Positions 16,524-38,135 of a DNA stretch of 64,000 bases are shown piece by piece (position 1 is the first letter of the stretch; each line of letters opens with the position of its first letter). Origin of the DNA: Ignavibacteriales bacterium. Its GTDB lineage: Bacteria > Bacteroidota > Ignavibacteria > Ignavibacteriales > Ignavibacteriaceae. The stretch spans positions 904,093 to 968,092 of the forward strand of contig JADJEI010000013.1 in NCBI GenBank assembly GCA_016709155.1, given 5' to 3'. The position numbers and the translations under genes are program-made. The notes under the pieces were generated by a model. That model was not told the origin of the DNA. It did no database searches and saw only the letters and a program-made list of their open reading frames with translations.

Positions 16524-17687
16524 GATAATTTTACCCAAAGTCTTGCTTGGCCAGTCGACGTCGAGATTTTTATAATCATTCAAGGTTTGAATGCCGGCGA
16601 AAGTGTAGGATTCAGAATGGTTGCTCAAGGGGCAGTATGGAAAAGTTTAGGTCTTTGGGAGTTTCAATTAACTAATGAATATCATGATGTTTATTATCCA
16701 GGCGAATGTTTGATCACTGGCAATACGATCGGTAATTGGGCTTACGGCAATAATATTGCCGGTGGAAATTCCTTTAATCAACATACTATTGGTTATTCAT
16801 TGTATCGTTTAGAAGTTTATAATAACTATTGTGAATTTTTCCCAACCGTTTATTATTTTGATTACAGAGATTGTGATTATCCATTACGCACTAGGCCTGA
16901 TGGGACACCCTCACCTAATAGTAATAGCACAGGAGGAAATGACATTTGGATATTATACGATGCCCCCACTACTACCTGTTCTCTCAGTATAGATGGTGCA
17001 TTAACATAGCAATTGTTAAATAATAATGCTTATTCTAGTTATTGGGATATCAAAAACAAAAGTACACATTCGCCTTATACCAATTATTTCCCAAGCTACT
17101 GGCAAAATTGCCTTGCTCTAATTCCGTCATCGGGTAATCACCCCCATCTTGTTTGGGGACCTCATCCTACTTTTAATACTACCCAATACAGAATTTACAG
17201 AGCAGTTAGTAACTACCCCAGAAATCCTCAAGTTCTGAATTATTCCTTGATCACAACCGTAAGCTCTTCAACCTTTGATTATGTAGATTATGCTGTTCTA
17301 ATTATTCCAGGCTATCAATATGCTTATTATTATGTAGTTGGATGGGATGGAACTGTTCAATCGGATAAAACAAACTATGTAAGTACACAAGCAGTATTTT
17401 ATAAACAATCAGCTGAGATACCTAACGAATTTAGTATATCCCAAAATTACCCCAACCCATTCAACCCAAGCACAAGCATCAGCTATTCAATTCCGGAAAA
17501 TGCTTTTGTTACATTGAAGATTTATGATGTGCTTGGAAATGAAGTTGAGGCGTTAATAAACGAGCAGAAAGAGCCGGGTAATTATCAAATAGATTTTAAT
17601 GCAAGCGAACTTTCCAGTGGAATATATTATTATGCATTGACAGCAGGTAACTTTATAAGCACGAAAAAGATGTCGCTGATTAAATAA
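16524..17687 (+). pseudogene. cassette gene B3: T9SS-tailed protein lacking a signal peptide and carrying an in-frame TAG
   Basis: ORFs 16587..17009 and 17013..17687 share one frame, separated by TAG 17007..17009. The upstream ATG 16501 is out of frame and stops after 7 codons. The C-terminal tail is close to B2 at DNA level. Confidence 0.65.
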
Positions 17688-17879: not shown

Positions 17880-18226
17880 GTGTCAAAGATGTTATCAAAT
17901 CTAAATAATTTAATAAATTATATGAATAATAATATGAAATATCTAAATAATATTATCTATTATCTAAATATTATTAAGAATTATTAAAATAATAAATAGT
18001 ATTATTTATATAAATCTATATATTACTTGAATAATAATATATTTAACTTATATATTATTTATTATTATTTGTATAATAGAATAAAATATTTGAGTAATAA
18101 TTAGAATTACTTAAGTATTTTTTATTATACTTCAAATAAAATATTAAATAATTTAGATAATACTTAATATTATCTGCCAGTATTTATAAATTGTGTGCGT
18201 TAATACTAAACTAATGAGGATTTTTT
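17880..18226. other. extreme A+T tract upstream of 18227..18859
   Basis: Hand count gives 5, 4 and 7 G+C in the three 60-nt lines 17941..18120. TCTAAATA recurs three times direct and once inverted. No ORF. Confidence 0.8.
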
Positions 18227-18859
18227 ATGCCAAAGCAGGACTATATACCAAAATTAAAGCCCAAACTTTTCACGTGGGTTAAATCTTTTCTGACAAACTT
18301 TCCCACGCTTGCCCCCGGGCTTGGAATTTCTGCCCCCTCCGTTACCGATTTAACAAACCGTCTTAACGATTACCTGACCGCTTACACCGAAATGATAAGT
18401 CTGCGTGCAACCTACCACGCCAAAGTCGCCGAAGTGAAATTGAAACGCAAGCACGCCATCTCCGAAGTGGGTGGGGTAAGGTCAATTGTGAAAATTATGA
18501 AGGCGAGCAGTGCCTACACCCTTGCAGTAGGAGAAAGTTTACAAGTCGAGCTTGATGCGCCTGTGCCGGATAGGAACAATATGCAGCCGCGCTTTAAGGC
18601 AGAGGTGGATGCAAATAGGATTGTAAAATTATTTTATAAGAAAGGAATTGCCAGCGGAGTGAATGCGTATTGCCGACGCGAAGGCGAAAAAGATTTTATT
18701 TTTATCGGGACCGATAGTATAAGTCCTATGCTTGATCCCCGCCCCAACCTAACCGATCAGCCTGAGGAAAGAGAGTATTATTTAATTTATGTAATTGACG
18801 ATGTCCAGGTTGGAAAGAAATCGCCCATCCTAAAGGTTACGGTTGACAAGAAGGGGTAG
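18227..18859 (+). CDS. hypothetical protein, paralogue of 35778..36389 (helical N-half, beta-rich C-terminal module)
   Basis: Clean ORF, visibly higher G+C than neighbours. Shares KDxIPx start and C-terminal RRxGE...EREY..YVIxDVxVG...V motif with 35778..36389. Confidence 0.7.
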   Translation: MPKQDYIPKLKPKLFTWVKSFLTNFPTLAPGLGISAPSVTDLTNRLNDYLTAYTEMISLRATYHAKVAEVKLKRKHAISEVGGVRSIVKIMKASSAYTLAVGESLQVELDAPVPDRNNMQPRFKAEVDANRIVKLFYKKGIASGVNAYCRREGEKDFIFIGTDSISPMLDPRPNLTDQPEEREYYLIYVIDDVQVGKKSPILKVTVDKKG

Positions 18860-34424: not shown

Positions 34425-35658
34425 ATGAAAAGTATAATATCAATTCTGTTTTTTCTTTCAATTTCAATTTCCAACTTTGCGGCTACTTGTATTGAATGCC
34501 ACAGGCAAATTACACCTAACATCGTAACTGACTGGCAGCTCAGCAAGCATTCTGCAAACGATGTTGATTGCTCGGTGTGTCATGGTGATCAACATACAAA
34601 TGCAAATGACTTTAAGAATGCACTTATCCCCACCCCTGAAACATGCAAGCTTTGCCACGAAACTCAGGTTGAGCAATTCAGTAAAGGTAAACATGCAATG
34701 GCTTGGGCTTCGCTTAAGGCTATGCCGACTTTCCACATGCAGCCAATGGCGATGACTGAAGGTATGAAGGGCTGCGGCGGTTGTCATAAGATCGGTTTAA
34801 AATCAGAAGAAGAAATCAAGCAGCTTAAAAGTGAAGGTTCCGGTTTTGGTCTTGCGTCCTGCGACGCCTGCCATACCCGTCACACATTTTCTGTTGTTGA
34901 GGCTAAACAGCCGCAGGCATGTCAAACCTGCCACATGGGTTTTGACCACCCCCAATGGGAAATGTATTCAAGTTCAAAACATGGTGTTCGTAGTTCGTTA
35001 AAGCAAATGGATCTTCTTCCTGAATCTTCTTCTGCACCCACCTGTCAAACTTGTCACATGCAAGAGGGCAATCACGAAGTCCGTACTGCCTGGGGATTTC
35101 TCGCTGTCCGTCTGCCAATGCCTGAAGATAAGCAATGGACTGAGGACCGCGTAACTATATTACAAGGGCTGGGGGTTCTCGATCCTCAAGGCAACCCCAC
35201 CGGAAGGCTTGATGTTGTTAAAGCTGCTGATGTTGCTCGCCTTACTCAGGAAGCCTGGCAAACCGAGCGCGATAAGATGATCAAAACTTGCGGTAACTGT
35301 CACTCCGAGAATTTTGCAAAGGGTGAACTTGAAAAAGGCGACAACATGATCAAAGAAGCTGATCACCTGATGGCGCAGGGTATAAAAATTATTGCCGGGC
35401 TTTATCAGGATGGTATTATTCCTAAGCCTGAAGCTTATGCTTATAATTTCCCCGACTTGCTCACTTTCCATGACGCACCGACGGTTATTGAGCAAAAACT
35501 TTTTTGTGATGTTCCTTGAGCACAGGATGAGAACTTTTCAGGGAACTTTTCACGCGAGCCCTGACTACGCTCTCTGGTACGGCTGGAGTGAAATGCAGCA
35601 GGATTTAACTGAGATTAAAGAAATGGCTATGCAGATGAGAAAAGATTTTAAGCAGTAA
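34425..35658 (+). CDS. periplasmic octahaem c-type cytochrome (HAO-like family, tentative); frameshift at T6 35501..35506
   Basis: Signal peptide and eight CxxCH motifs. Removing one T joins ...TVIEQKLF to VMFLEHRMRTFQGTFHASPDYALWYGWSEM... (ORF 35392..35658 frame). Confidence 0.75.
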
Positions 35659-35692: not shown

Positions 35693-35731
35693 AAAAAAAC
35701 CTCCGGAGTTTTTAAGCTCCGGAGGTTTTTT
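35693..35731. terminator. bidirectional terminator between convergent genes
   Basis: AAAAAACCTCCGGAG tttttaag CTCCGGAGGTTTTTT. Confidence 0.8.
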
Positions 35732-35777: not shown

Positions 35778-36389
35778 TTACGGTACTGCGATAGTTGCTA
35801 CATCAGATTCTAATCCAACTTCTACATCACCGATAACATAGACGGCTTTATACTCACGCATCTCTGCACCTGCAGCGAGGTTTTCGCGTGTGTCTATGTA
35901 AGGACTTTCGGTGTCAAAAGCTAAAAGTGTCCATTCAGTTTCACCTGCACGGCGGGTGTATATCTTCACTCCATCAGCAATACTTTTTTGAAATGAAATT
36001 CTAACATGCTGATTTGGCATAAGGAACAACTTCAATATTGGTTTCATTGTGTCTTTATCAACAAATGAATCAACACCTTCAATGCCAAGATCCTGACCGA
36101 TTGCTATAGTGTAATTCGGGTTTGCCTTCATCTGCCTTCCTTGAGCTCTGATTAGGTCATTTGCAATTTTTCGTTTTGCTCTTGTATCGGCGTACAGACT
36201 TTCCATATTTGCTTCGGCAGCAACCTGGGTGGAGTATGCAGTGCGGCAGGCACCCACCTTTGTGTTGGCTTCAGTTACCTGAGCCGGTGTGATGGCAAGC
36301 GCAACATTGTGCAGCGGCAGCTTGGTCAAATAATTTTCGTGAAATGTGTCCTGTTCATCAACAGGGCGGGGGATGAAATCCTTTTTCAT
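35778..36389 (-). CDS. hypothetical protein, paralogue of 18227..18859
   Basis: Clean 203-aa ORF, higher G+C than background. Same N-terminal KDFIPR start and C-terminal RRAGE...MREYKAVYVIGDVEVG module. Confidence 0.7.
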   Translation of the reverse strand: MKKDFIPRPVDEQDTFHENYLTKLPLHNVALAITPAQVTEANTKVGACRTAYSTQVAAEANMESLYADTRAKRKIANDLIRAQGRQMKANPNYTIAIGQDLGIEGVDSFVDKDTMKPILKLFLMPNQHVRISFQKSIADGVKIYTRRAGETEWTLLAFDTESPYIDTRENLAAGAEMREYKAVYVIGDVEVGLESDVATIAVP

Positions 36390-36574
36390 AAAAGGTCCTT
36401 TCTGAAAAAATTTTAAATTTGTTATTTATTAAAAGGAACCCTGCTTAATCCACGTTTATTCTCTTTTAAGCTATAAGAGTTCCAACTCAAACACCGGTTT
36501 CGGAATACCCAACTATTGTGCCATATTGATATTTGTTCTTTATTCTAAAAAAATAAAGAAAAGCACTTGGATGT

Positions 36575-36935
36575 GAGTTGCCGACGGTTAAAAATTACAT
36601 GCTGAAGATAAAAATTACCTGCCCAACGGTGGAAAGGTTGGCGCCAACGCTATGACGGGGGGTGGCAACGCGCCCGGGTTTGTAAGCCCCGCTGTACGGT
36701 TGACGGCAACCGTGAGACGGCGCAGACCAACCGTCGCGCAGATGCCTTCCCCGTGTGACGGGTGCCCACCGACAAGACGGCGTTGCAGGCAACCGTGACA
36801 TGGGCGGCTTCCCCCGTGGGACGGTTGGTCCTCACTTTCCGACGGTTATCGCCAACCATCCAAAAGTTAGTGGCAACCGTAGCACGGTTGGTAAAAAGCT
36901 TCGATTTTAGAGTATTTTCAACGGTTATTGGACAT
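36575..36935. repeat. G+C-rich non-coding block packed with ACGGTTG/CAACCGT heptamers and short hairpins
   Basis: Seven exact heptamers (36696, 36707, 36728, 36790, 36821, 36874, 36884) and about as many one-mismatch variants. Palindrome GTTGGCGCCAAC at 36637..36648. ~65% G+C at 36661..36840. Confidence 0.8.
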
Positions 36936-36990
36936 TAATTGTTGCGTGGGTGAAGGGAAATTAGGAAGCATTAAAGAAGTTTAACGTTTC

Positions 36991-37101
36991 GGGGCTTAAA
37001 GAAGTGGCGGGTTAGAAGCACGAACTGTCAACCTACCACAACTGTTTATTAGAAGCACAAATGTTTGATTAACCACTTCACCCGCCATTTCTTTTAAGCC
37101 C
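36991..37101. other. long imperfect hairpin (~20-bp stem, 66-nt loop), possible structured RNA or recombination site
   Basis: GGGGCTTAAAGAAGTGGCGGGT (36991..37012) pairs with CACCCGCCATTTCTTTTAAGCCC (37079..37101), with one bulge and one G-U. Confidence 0.55.
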
Positions 37102-37270
37102 TTGTTATCGGTAGCTCTTCTGTCTGTCCGAAGATGTGTCGTGTCAAGTTTGCACACACTTTGTCCGAAGCGAATTACATTAGAAGCTATGTCCGTCCAA
37201 TTACGCACAGTGCGTTGACAAAATAAATTAAAACATTGAAGAGTGTATTTTTTTTGCGTTGATTTTTTCA

Positions 37271-37828
37271 TCAGTTGTATCTTTTGTTTACTGTTTCCAT
37301 ATAATCTACCACAACTGCATTCATTTTATTTCGATACCACCGAAAAAAGAAATTAGGAACTTTTGCAGCTTCTTGTCGGCTGATATAAATTTCGTCTTGT
37401 ACGTCACGAAGTTCGTCTGTGCCAATATATATTTTATTGAGAATTATTTCGTCCAAATATATTGAGATAGCTTTTCGTCTATCAATTGCAGATGAGTGTC
37501 CACGAATAAGAGTAATAAAGTGAGTGTAAAATGAGAGTATAGAAAAGTAAATTAAAAAAATAGTCATGCCATTTGAGTTGTAAGAAATAAGAAATATCCA
37601 AAGCACGATTGAATAGGAAATAAGAAATCCCGCCAACCATCTACAATAAATAATGCGTAACTCAATATCCCAACTTGTGTTTGAATGTTGCAAAACTGCT
37701 ACGGAAATATTATGAGGAATCGTTGTTGAAATGTTTGGTGAATACCAATCTATAATTTCATTGCCTTTGTATTCAAGAGAAAATTTTGAAACTTCGAATG
37801 GTCTGGCTTCTTTAAGGTTGACTTCCAT
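37271..37828 (-). CDS. 2-TM membrane protein with charged helical C-tail (candidate membrane effector, second half)
   Basis: TM helices LAGFLISYSIVLWIFLISY and MTIFLIYFSILSFYTHFITLI. Overlaps the upstream gene by 17 nt. Confidence 0.6.
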   Translation of the reverse strand: MEVNLKEARPFEVSKFSLEYKGNEIIDWYSPNISTTIPHNISVAVLQHSNTSWDIELRIIYCRWLAGFLISYSIVLWIFLISYNSNGMTIFLIYFSILSFYTHFITLIRGHSSAIDRRKAISIYLDEIILNKIYIGTDELRDVQDEIYISRQEAAKVPNFFFRWYRNKMNAVVVDYMETVNKRYN

Positions 37829-38135
37829 CGTAAATTAAAAGTGCAGTGTCAAACTCTTCCTTAAATATTGCTCCCTTAGAAGTATTTCCTTTGAAAGTAT
37901 CTGCGAATATTTGAACTAAAACAGTAAGCAAAAAAGAACAACCGAATAAAGCAAGTTTTATGCTTTCGTCTTTGATAAGAACATAGGCGATAGGGTAAGC
38001 AAAAGCAAGAAAGATTAAAAAGTAAGTAACTTTTATTTCACCATTCTTTGCTTTTGTATATGCAACTGTTGATGCTTTTAGCAGCTTAATAAATTCAGGT
38101 TCGTTTTGTTTTATCAGAATTTCATTCATTTTCAT
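37812..38135 (-). CDS. 2-TM membrane protein (candidate membrane effector, first half)
   Basis: TM helices VTYFLIFLAFAYPIAYVLI and LALFGCSFLLTVLVQIFA. The start overlaps the upstream ORF end by 14 nt. Confidence 0.6.
   Translation of the reverse strand: MKMNEILIKQNEPEFIKLLKASTVAYTKAKNGEIKVTYFLIFLAFAYPIAYVLIKDESIKLALFGCSFLLTVLVQIFADTFKGNTSKGAIFKEEFDTALLIYDGSQP

Follow-up and report, generated by a model that had tools for sequence, protein, structure and literature searches.

A G+C-rich, non-coding block in the window (the whole stretch of DNA analysed here, 64,000 nucleotides or 64 kb in length) consists of degenerate repeats arrayed in tandem at a strict period of 21 nt, and the heptamers ACGGTTG and CAACCGT that recur in it are the half-sites of its unit, CAACCGT-N3-ACGGTTG-N4. 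This array (array 1) lies upstream of gene 1, a member of an unannotated protein family, and the arrangement is not unique, as arrays of the same period precede the genes of this family in distant bacteria and a second array with its own family gene is found in the same window. The 21-bp array, its linkage to the gene family and the second copy in the window are, in our opinion, secure. The recurrence of array plus gene, in at least six bacterial phyla and twice in one window, points to an undescribed DNA-protein module. That the block, which lies upstream of a gene of this family, is the cis half of such a two-part module is a proposal for which we consider the chances to be evenly balanced.

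The G+C-rich block as a tandem array

The composition and the heptamers that had first drawn attention to the block were both borne out by recounting. The three 60-nt lines between 36661 and 36840 contain 40, 41 and 39 G+C, and 200-nt windows at 36600-36900 reach a G+C fraction of 0.61-0.63, in a window that has 35.4% G+C as a whole. The heptamer or its complement is present at all seven positions where exact copies had been described (36696, 36707, 36728, 36790, 36821, 36874 and 36884). These are seven of the 13 exact copies found in 64 kb, where 3.9 would be expected, and outside the block the heptamer is at background level. A frequency explained by local composition had been named as grounds for refuting the observation, and the counts do not refute it: when the 361-nt block was shuffled 2000 times with its dinucleotides preserved, exact copies averaged 0.16 (maximum 3) against the seven found, and heptamers with at most one mismatch averaged 2.2 against 16, with none of the shuffles reaching the observed counts. 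The palindrome GTTGGCGCCAAC (36637-36648) and the hairpins ACGGTTGacggCAACCGT (36696-36713) and CAACCGTagcACGGTTG (36874-36890) are likewise present, and the block is indeed covered by partial open reading frames only, with stop codons in all six frames.

The feature absent from the original prediction is the fixed 21-nt register of the heptamer copies. Autocorrelation of 36620-36900 is highest at lag 21 (z = 6.6) and also high at lag 42 (z = 4.7) and at lags 62/63 (z of approximately 6), and when the minus strand is written in rows of 21 the register is held from 36935 to 36578. This span contains 13 core units and 4 worn ones (some 13-17 in all). The consensus of the core on the gene strand is nnCAACCGT-nnn-ACGGTTGnn, and the core shows a single 1-nt register slip, near 36725. 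The longer sequences into which the heptamer had been seen to extend (GGCAACCGT, GTTGGCGCCAAC) are the second dyad centre of the array, which lies half a period away because any tandem palindrome must have one. Tandem Repeats Finder (36400-37100, minimum score 30) did not report array 1, as its units are only about 45% alike. Within the 64 kb, the unit CAACCGT-N3-ACGGTTG, in this or the other register, is essentially restricted to 36624-36890, with three isolated 3-mismatch matches elsewhere. More generally, a local outlier in composition, such as this island of 65% G+C, can turn out to be a worn tandem array.

Table 1. Features of the two modules, with positions in the window.
Feature	Positions	Strand	Basis and remarks
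Array 2, about 14 tandem 21-nt units, 14% G+C	17893..18186	+	Lag autocorrelation; ends 40 nt before gene 2
Partner gene 2, 210 aa, paralogue of gene 1	18227..18859	+	33% identity, BLASTP 2e-36; hhalign against the family profile, 99.9% probability
Intrinsic-terminator-like hairpin closing gene 1	35694..35731	-	15-pair stem, then T run
Partner gene 1, 203 aa, helical N-domain and FN3-like C-domain	35778..36389	-	Unannotated family; profile, AlphaFold2
A+T-rich spacer, array 1 to start codon	36390..36577	-	95.2% identity to L001; two sigma-54-like -24/-12 matches
Sigma-54-like match TGGAACTCTTATAGCT	36469-36484	-	GG-N10-GC
Sigma-54-like match TGGCACAATAGTTGGG	36508-36523	-	Better -24 match, but GG not GC at -12
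Array 1, two proximal worn units, A+T-rich	36578..36620	-	Row register; TAAAAATTACNTGC repeated at 20-nt spacing
Array 1 core, 13 tandem 21-nt units	36621..36893	-	Autocorrelation, row register, half-site conservation against L001
Array 1, two distal worn units (ATGTCCAATAACCGTTGAAAA, TACTCTAAAATCGAAGCTTTT)	36894..36935	-	In register, keep AACCGTTG, conserved in L001
Conserved distal flank of module 1	36936..36987	-	Homology to L001 stops at about 36987

Conservation in an orthologous locus

A Logan contig, L001, carries an orthologue of gene 1 whose protein is 97% identical, and gene, spacer and array are all conserved in it, the 21-nt period of the array included. Nucleotide identity is 96.1% in the gene, 95.2% in the spacer and 88.9% in the array, the spacer being better conserved than the array. 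The distal end of the module (36901-36987) is 93% identical; the alignment ends at window position 36987 and nothing aligns further out, where the window has defence genes and L001 has unrelated lipoprotein-like genes. The block had been described as lying between a defence island and an atypical gene. The adjacency is correct, but the block is more than something that happens to be placed in between, as it is the upstream partner of that gene.

Substitutions in gene 1 are distributed 4/1/19 over the three codon positions, with third positions changed at 19 of 203 sites, a pattern that points to a real coding gene. Array 1 as a whole evolves about as fast as synonymous sites and has a 1-nt indel, at 36753. 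Its changes are not evenly spread, as 17 substitutions fall in the 7 linker positions of the unit and 14 in the 14 half-site positions; half-sites thus change 2.4 times less often than linkers.

The partner gene and its family

The 203-aa product of gene 1 has no match in Pfam, NCBIfam, PHROG or PADLOC and no record on exact look-up. Its AlphaFold2 model (mean pLDDT 87) shows a helical domain at the N-terminus, spanning residues 9-100, and an FN3-like C-domain of seven strands. Foldseek with the whole model returned generic FN3 domains only; the N-domain modelled alone (pLDDT 95) had no structural relative in the PDB at E <= 0.001, and a PDB profile search produced coiled-coil noise only. Profile and Foldseek searches revealed no recognisable DNA-binding fold in this protein.

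A search with the family profile among 1.84 billion cluster representatives retrieved 3065 relatives at E <= 0.001, of which 451 reach E <= 1e-30; almost all of the relatives are 200-235 aa long. Those that have a name are all called 'hypothetical', and they have neither a Pfam domain nor a fusion partner. According to record titles and source names, members are found in Verrucomicrobiae, in Chthonomonadales, Fimbriimonadaceae and other Armatimonadota, in Nitrosomonadales (Proteobacteria), in Chitinophagales, Flavobacterium and other Bacteroidota, and in Blastocatellia/Pyrinomonadaceae (Acidobacteriota). No relatives were found among 50,697 phage records, 72,556 plasmid records and IMG/VR. The proteins are mostly mildly acidic, with a median pI of 5.9; the products of genes 1 and 2 have values of 5.5 and 9.2, respectively.

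A second module in the same window

The strongest lag-21 signal of the whole window (z = 8.0) is that of array 2, not that of the G+C-rich block, and at lags 42 and 63 array 2 has z values of 6.4 and 7.9, respectively. The dyad consensus of array 2 is AAATAATAtT-a-tatATTATTT, and genes 1 and 2 are the only members of the family in the 64 kb. Arrays 1 and 2, with 65% and 14% G+C, share nothing but period and dyad. In another gene of the window (17013-17687), a T9SS-type C-terminal sorting domain was seen by eye, and a Pfam match to such a domain is present in the locus L002.

The array as a trait of the gene family

The loci surveyed came from genomes (11) and metagenomes (36), and several were obtained by exact look-up. 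They were scanned with the family alignment A5, alignments A4 and A3 being too diverse for this purpose, and an array was scored when the strongest autocorrelation lag (range 4-70) in the upstream 1 kb was 21, 42 or 63. Such a top lag was observed in 40 of the 46 family loci that have at least 300 nt upstream, compared with a background of 8.7% of 252-nt windows of the 64-kb window. When proteins were collapsed at 90% identity, an upstream array was found in 33 of 36 non-redundant clusters, drawn from Bacteroidota, Armatimonadota, Verrucomicrobiota, Acidobacteriota and Nitrosomonadales. Of the three clusters scored without an array, one (L004) has its array cut by the contig. Arrays are also present in three further loci that were retrieved separately. 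The association is with the upstream side, as arrays were found downstream of none of 34 family genes and within one of 49 gene bodies. An all-against-all search of the family loci showed no other conserved neighbour gene beside the module, and no description of the gene-array pair was found in searches of the literature and of four family libraries (Pfam, PHROG, NCBIfam and PADLOC).

The family arrays have 7-27 units and end between about 20 and about 560 nt before the start codon, commonly at 50-100 nt; an array at a distance of 20-60 nt necessarily either overlaps the promoter or is part of the transcript. Different lineages have unrelated unit sequences. Many of these are dyad-symmetric, although this symmetry, clear in many arrays, is not significant in all. 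For instance, the array of a Nitrosomonadales genome consists of TCAGAAATTCTTTTTGTTGCA repeated 16 times and then CACAAACTTGGCGCCTGATAA repeated 7 times, that of a Chitinophagales genome has 8 copies of GCTGTGGTTAGTCACAGTGTG, Bacteroidota arrays have GCCAAT...ATTGGC units, and Chthonomonadaceae show a 42-nt super-period. The G+C content of an array may be above or below that of its own genome, depending on the locus. Consequently, the high G+C of array 1 is incidental, and what is constant is the period.

The number of units changes in steps of 21 bp. At two loci with near-identical flanks (one mismatch in the aligned sequence), the difference in array length is exactly 63 bp, and the inner units are reshuffled. 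Homogeneity is 95-100% in some arrays, others are worn, and short-period simple repeats are often found beside the arrays.

A proposed phased array of double-stranded DNA

Array 1 is probably a phased binding array that functions at the DNA level, a putative role that its sequence and period lead us to favour slightly. According to this explanation, the array would act as double-stranded DNA with a half-site every 10 or 11 bp, one per helical turn. Since 21 bp are two turns of B-DNA and the 21-bp unit is palindromic, the half-sites would all be on one face of the helix, with alternating orientation; identical sites can be put exactly every 10.5 bp only if the 21-bp unit is palindromic. This geometry may let head-to-head protein dimers polymerise cooperatively along the DNA of the array, and the resulting polymer could either govern how the gene next to it is expressed or form a fixed nucleoprotein complex at this site. 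For the mechanism of the module as a whole, we consider the arguments on the two sides to be of about equal weight.

By analogy, the geometry appears most like that of a phased multi-dimer binding array, and phased protein-binding arrays are already known. Among the three readings originally offered for the block, that of an iteron-like protein-binding array came closest: the phased 21-bp tandem array and the multi-dimer geometry agree with it, whereas a Rep gene and a plasmid or phage context are missing and the units are palindromic, not direct. Intrinsic curvature as the sole function is not supported. When curvature was predicted from dinucleotide wedges, the arrays had a median percentile of 0.36 among column-permuted periodic controls, and arrays 1 and 2 were at the level of shuffles.

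Two candidates may be considered as the binder, the gene's own product and a trans-acting regulator, and either assignment is tentative. The gene's own product would be the simplest binder, because the gene is the sole conserved neighbour and its paralogues have completely different arrays, and if it were the binder the module would be self-contained. Additional points in favour are that arrays are specific to each lineage and paralogue and that parC-ParR pairs share this layout; points against are that the protein has no known DNA-binding fold and that the family is mostly mildly acidic. In such a self-contained module, which we put forward as a conjecture, a family with helical and FN3-like domains, and with no known nucleic-acid-binding fold, would read a rapidly evolving, paralogue-specific array of 7-27 dyad-symmetric 21-bp units upstream of its own gene while polymerising on one face of the DNA. 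If the own-product reading holds, which is similarly doubtful, the family would represent a new class of proteins that bind DNA sequence-specifically and have a landing pad of their own built into the chromosome.

Promoter signals and the possibility of a trans-acting regulator

The array could instead be an enhancer or upstream activating array for a regulator acting in trans, for example a sigma-54 enhancer-binding protein or a response regulator of the NarL/OmpR type, with the FN3 gene as target only. We estimate that there is a modest chance of this. The geometry of the array matches that of BvgA arrays, and in one Flavobacterium locus a HisKA_3 kinase and a response regulator adjoin the module; no trans regulator, however, is conserved beside the module, and a scan of the open reading frames of the 64 kb for GAFTGA/ELFGH motifs found no enhancer-binding protein. 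Sigma-54-like -24/-12 motifs lie between array and gene in the clade of array 1 and in the clade of L011, L012, L039 and L051. They were matched on the sense strand of 11 of 46 loci and on the antisense strand of none of the 46, and the loci that have them are among those with the longest array-to-gene distances. Nevertheless, the motif is missing from most loci, and in the window the better of the two -24 matches has GG at -12. Furthermore, each lineage and both paralogues would need a separate dedicated regulator.

Regarding other promoters, a sigma-70 scan of the minus-strand spacer gave no match, and sigma-70 scans of three regions performed no better than shuffles, so that promoters could not be placed. 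The spacer has a folding z of -1.65, which is not significant.

The unlikely reading of a transcribed repeat

A structured RNA, which was also among the original proposals, is unlikely. In this explanation, the array would be a transcribed repeat leader (5' UTR) or a non-coding RNA of about 13 small hairpins, each with a 7-bp stem and a 3-nt loop. The hairpins would either serve as binding sites for a protein, conceivably the FN3 protein, or regulate translation or stability, as in CsrB or TRAP-binding leaders; we hold this functional part to be just as improbable. Many arrays end 20-60 nt before the start codon, leaving scant room for a promoter, and array 1 can be drawn as hairpins, with a minimum free energy on the gene strand that is below that of shuffles (z = -2.6). 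The opposite strand, however, folds about equally well (z = -2.0). No Rfam match at gathering score was found over the 64 kb, and in a search of 36300-37300 at E <= 10 the sole overlap with the block was at chance level, with 10.6 bits against a gathering score of 440.

The substitutions lead in the same direction. Although one hairpin of array 1 differs from L001 by G.U/G-C exchanges only, the comparison of the two arrays, which has low power with only two orthologues, shows 0 double changes from one Watson-Crick pair to another and 10 WC/GU exchanges against 8 WC/AC. Across 40 arrays, gene-strand dyad mismatches are G.T in 619 cases and A.C in 607, and at well-paired positions in 712 and 1090, respectively. 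Because an RNA helix should strongly favour G.U, these counts do not support the RNA reading. Additionally, several arrays have loop-less palindromes or 14-40% G+C. Loop-less dyads, such as TTGGCGCCAA in L011 and L012 or GTTGGCGCCAAC in array 1, would be unable to form RNA hairpins, and the sister array in the window, with 14% G+C, also speaks against an RNA defined by high G+C. Finally, an RNA gives no reason for an exact 21-nt period in unrelated sequences. The G+C-rich structured RNA is consequently not supported as an account of the block: no Rfam match, no asymmetry between strands, no excess of G.U and no compensatory change relative to L001 was found.

Other improbable readings

It is also conceivable, and in our judgement quite improbable, that the array is a hypermutable minisatellite without a specific binder, either one whose copy number tunes promoter spacing or expression or a neutral product of slippage that hitch-hikes. 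Several of the properties described above would fit such a repeat, namely the different copy numbers of near-identical loci, the coexistence of arrays that are 95-100% homogeneous with worn ones, the near-synonymous rate of evolution of array 1 and the short-period simple repeats that often adjoin arrays. By contrast, a neutral repeat would not hold its 21-bp period through full replacement of its sequence across phyla, would not favour half-sites over linkers and is not expected to lie upstream, and only upstream, in 33 of 36 clusters; moreover, predicted curvature is no greater than in column-permuted periodic controls.

That the block encodes a protein of 7-residue repeats (21 nt being 7 codons) or is a REP/BIME cluster hardly deserves consideration, as the one gene-strand frame that stays open for about 95 codons has no ATG and the heptamers, although they form palindromes as REPs do, belong to a unit that is absent from the remainder of the 64 kb. 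A protein-coding heptad-repeat gene was excluded by stops in every frame, by the 1-nt indel relative to L001 inside array 1 and by the lack of a phase bias in its substitutions (12/14/10, p = 0.72, against 4/1/19 in gene 1). The nested REP/BIME-like elements first suggested for the block can be discarded as well, since the unit is confined to it within the 64 kb and the array is tied to one gene family across phyla.

Implications

If the reading of a phased array paired with its gene holds, a 'hypothetical' family whose members, thousands in number, occur in bacteria of soil, sediment and freshwater would gain a defining and easily recognised cis partner. A strict 21-bp period that persists through replacement of the sequence amounts to a natural experiment in helical phasing, and the paired diversity of arrays and proteins might, if true, provide a ready-made set of orthogonal protein-DNA pairs. 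It also raises a testable question, namely whether an FN3-type protein without a known DNA-binding fold can read DNA.

Comparison with known systems

REPs occur as many scattered copies, mostly behind genes, without a fixed phase and without ties to one particular neighbour. Array 1 is like REP/BIME elements in that short, G+C-rich, imperfect palindromes are clustered in an intergenic region, and unlike them in that its unit is found at a single locus of the 64 kb, repeats in phase every 21 bp and accompanies one gene family. The repeats of CsrB/RsmZ-type RNAs are not strictly periodic and show RNA-specific conservation. The array resembles these RNAs in the many copies of a short motif within one non-coding stretch and differs from them in that no RNA signature was found in it. 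In a CRISPR array, unique spacers of similar length separate the repeats, and cas genes are usually present. Such an array was considered and rejected, as the units directly adjoin one another, the variable stretch between half-sites being only 3-4 bases, and there are no cas genes among the neighbours scanned.

The iterons of theta plasmids and lambdoid origins are sequences of approximately 17-22 bp spaced at about two helical turns, with an A+T-rich stretch and then a gene behind them. They are usually direct repeats, 3-7 in number, beside a Rep initiator. The arrays described here share with them this layout and, at 21 bp, a spacing of about two helical turns; unlike iterons, they are palindromic, have 7-27 units and are chromosomal in many phyla. 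An iteron origin was rejected because the neighbour is a helical and FN3 protein, there is no Rep and the family is absent from the phage, plasmid and IMG/VR collections.

Among partition systems, ParR binds iteron arrays around its own promoter in the parC-ParR system of plasmid R1 (PMC2241845), and parH-ParG of TP228 is a further centromere/operator array bound by an adaptor encoded downstream (PMC3130281). As in both of these, tandem short repeats are found here directly upstream of a gene; there, it is the product of that gene that binds them. The parC-ParR precedent supports the idea that the module is defined by the cis-linkage of array and gene. The differences are that parC repeats are 11-bp direct repeats, whereas the units of array 1 are 21-bp palindromes, and that, unlike plasmid centromeres, the family arrays have a chromosomal context without a ParM, ParA or TubZ motor gene and without a ribbon-helix-helix or winged-helix protein. 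A type II or III partition centromere was accordingly rejected, as no cytomotive NTPase and no RHH/wHTH adaptor is adjacent and the neighbour is a helical bundle with an FN3 domain.

At the ptx promoter of Bordetella, BvgA binds as head-to-head dimers 22 bp apart, with one monomer per turn and six dimers on one face of the DNA (PMC7250471). BvgA arrays differ from those of the family in having 3-6 dimers that abut the -35 element, compared with 7-27 units at a variable distance, and no response regulator is conserved near the family arrays. The likeness lies in the architecture. As with phosphorylated BvgA (BvgA~P) at the ptx and fha promoters, head-to-head half-sites, most of them weak or degenerate, would be set on one face upstream of a gene, with one monomer of the putative binder per turn, and dimer centres would be two helical turns apart, 22 bp in BvgA arrays and 21 bp here.

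Array–gene pairs and repeat variation

The strongest 21-nt periodic signal of the window comes from a second array (17893-18186), which, at 14% G+C, is extremely A+T-rich. It lies directly upstream of the gene at 18227-18859(+), a paralogue of the atypical gene that accompanies the G+C-rich array.

Differences in copy number can be observed between L036 and L037, two near-identical loci of this gene family whose aligned flanks contain one mismatch. In the upstream 700 nt, the two arrays are exactly three 21-nt units apart in length, and their inner units are reshuffled. The 21-nt arrays behave like variable-number tandem repeats whose edges are conserved and whose interior is homogenised. Additionally, short-period simple repeats are found immediately distal to the arrays at several unrelated loci (see the table).

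Motifs in the spacer and neighbouring genes

The conserved spacer between the G+C-rich array and its gene contains two matches to a sigma-54-like -24/-12 element. In L004, whose spacer is 85% identical, both matches are unbroken and the sequence between them has diverged; a near-identical element, TGGAACTCACATAGCA, is found at -103 in L007, a Chthonomonadales locus.

At the locus of a Flavobacterium MAG (L052, 2040-4756), a HisKA_3 histidine kinase and a response regulator adjoin the module and are divergently transcribed from it; no such neighbours were seen at the other loci.

Borders of the G+C-rich module and the defence island

A multi-haem cytochrome c gene, 34425-35519(+), sited between a Fer4 gene and the module, has no counterpart in L001, the otherwise syntenic contig with the orthologous locus, and, because of this absence, the module has variable DNA on both sides. 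On the distal side, a long hairpin (36991-37012/37080-37101; 22-nt arms, 82% complementary, 67-nt loop) is placed exactly where homology between the window and L001 ends; it could mark the boundary of the variable defence island, or the point at which that island's transcript terminates.

Beyond it, two mutually overlapping ORFs match different parts of the same effector profile and look like the two pieces of a single defence effector gene that a frameshift has interrupted.

Motifs, simple repeats and effector ORFs
Feature	Locus	Position	Strand	Remarks
Sigma-54-like -24/-12 matches, TGGAACTCTTATAGCT and TGGCACAATAGTTGGG	window	36469-36484 and 36508-36523	minus	within conserved spacer
SMODS-associated 4TM effector, C-terminal part	window	37271-37828	minus	profile positions 120-285; Pfam S_4TM; PADLOC 4TM effector
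SMODS-associated 4TM effector, N-terminal part	window	37812-38135	minus	profile positions 1-96; Pfam S_4TM; PADLOC 4TM effector
ACCACTY x15 and TAAGTGG x6	L015	1895-2006 and 3364-3407		distal to 21-nt array
CCTTACA x15	L045	1-110		distal to 21-nt array
CAACCGCG x7	L005	2522-2575		distal to 21-nt array
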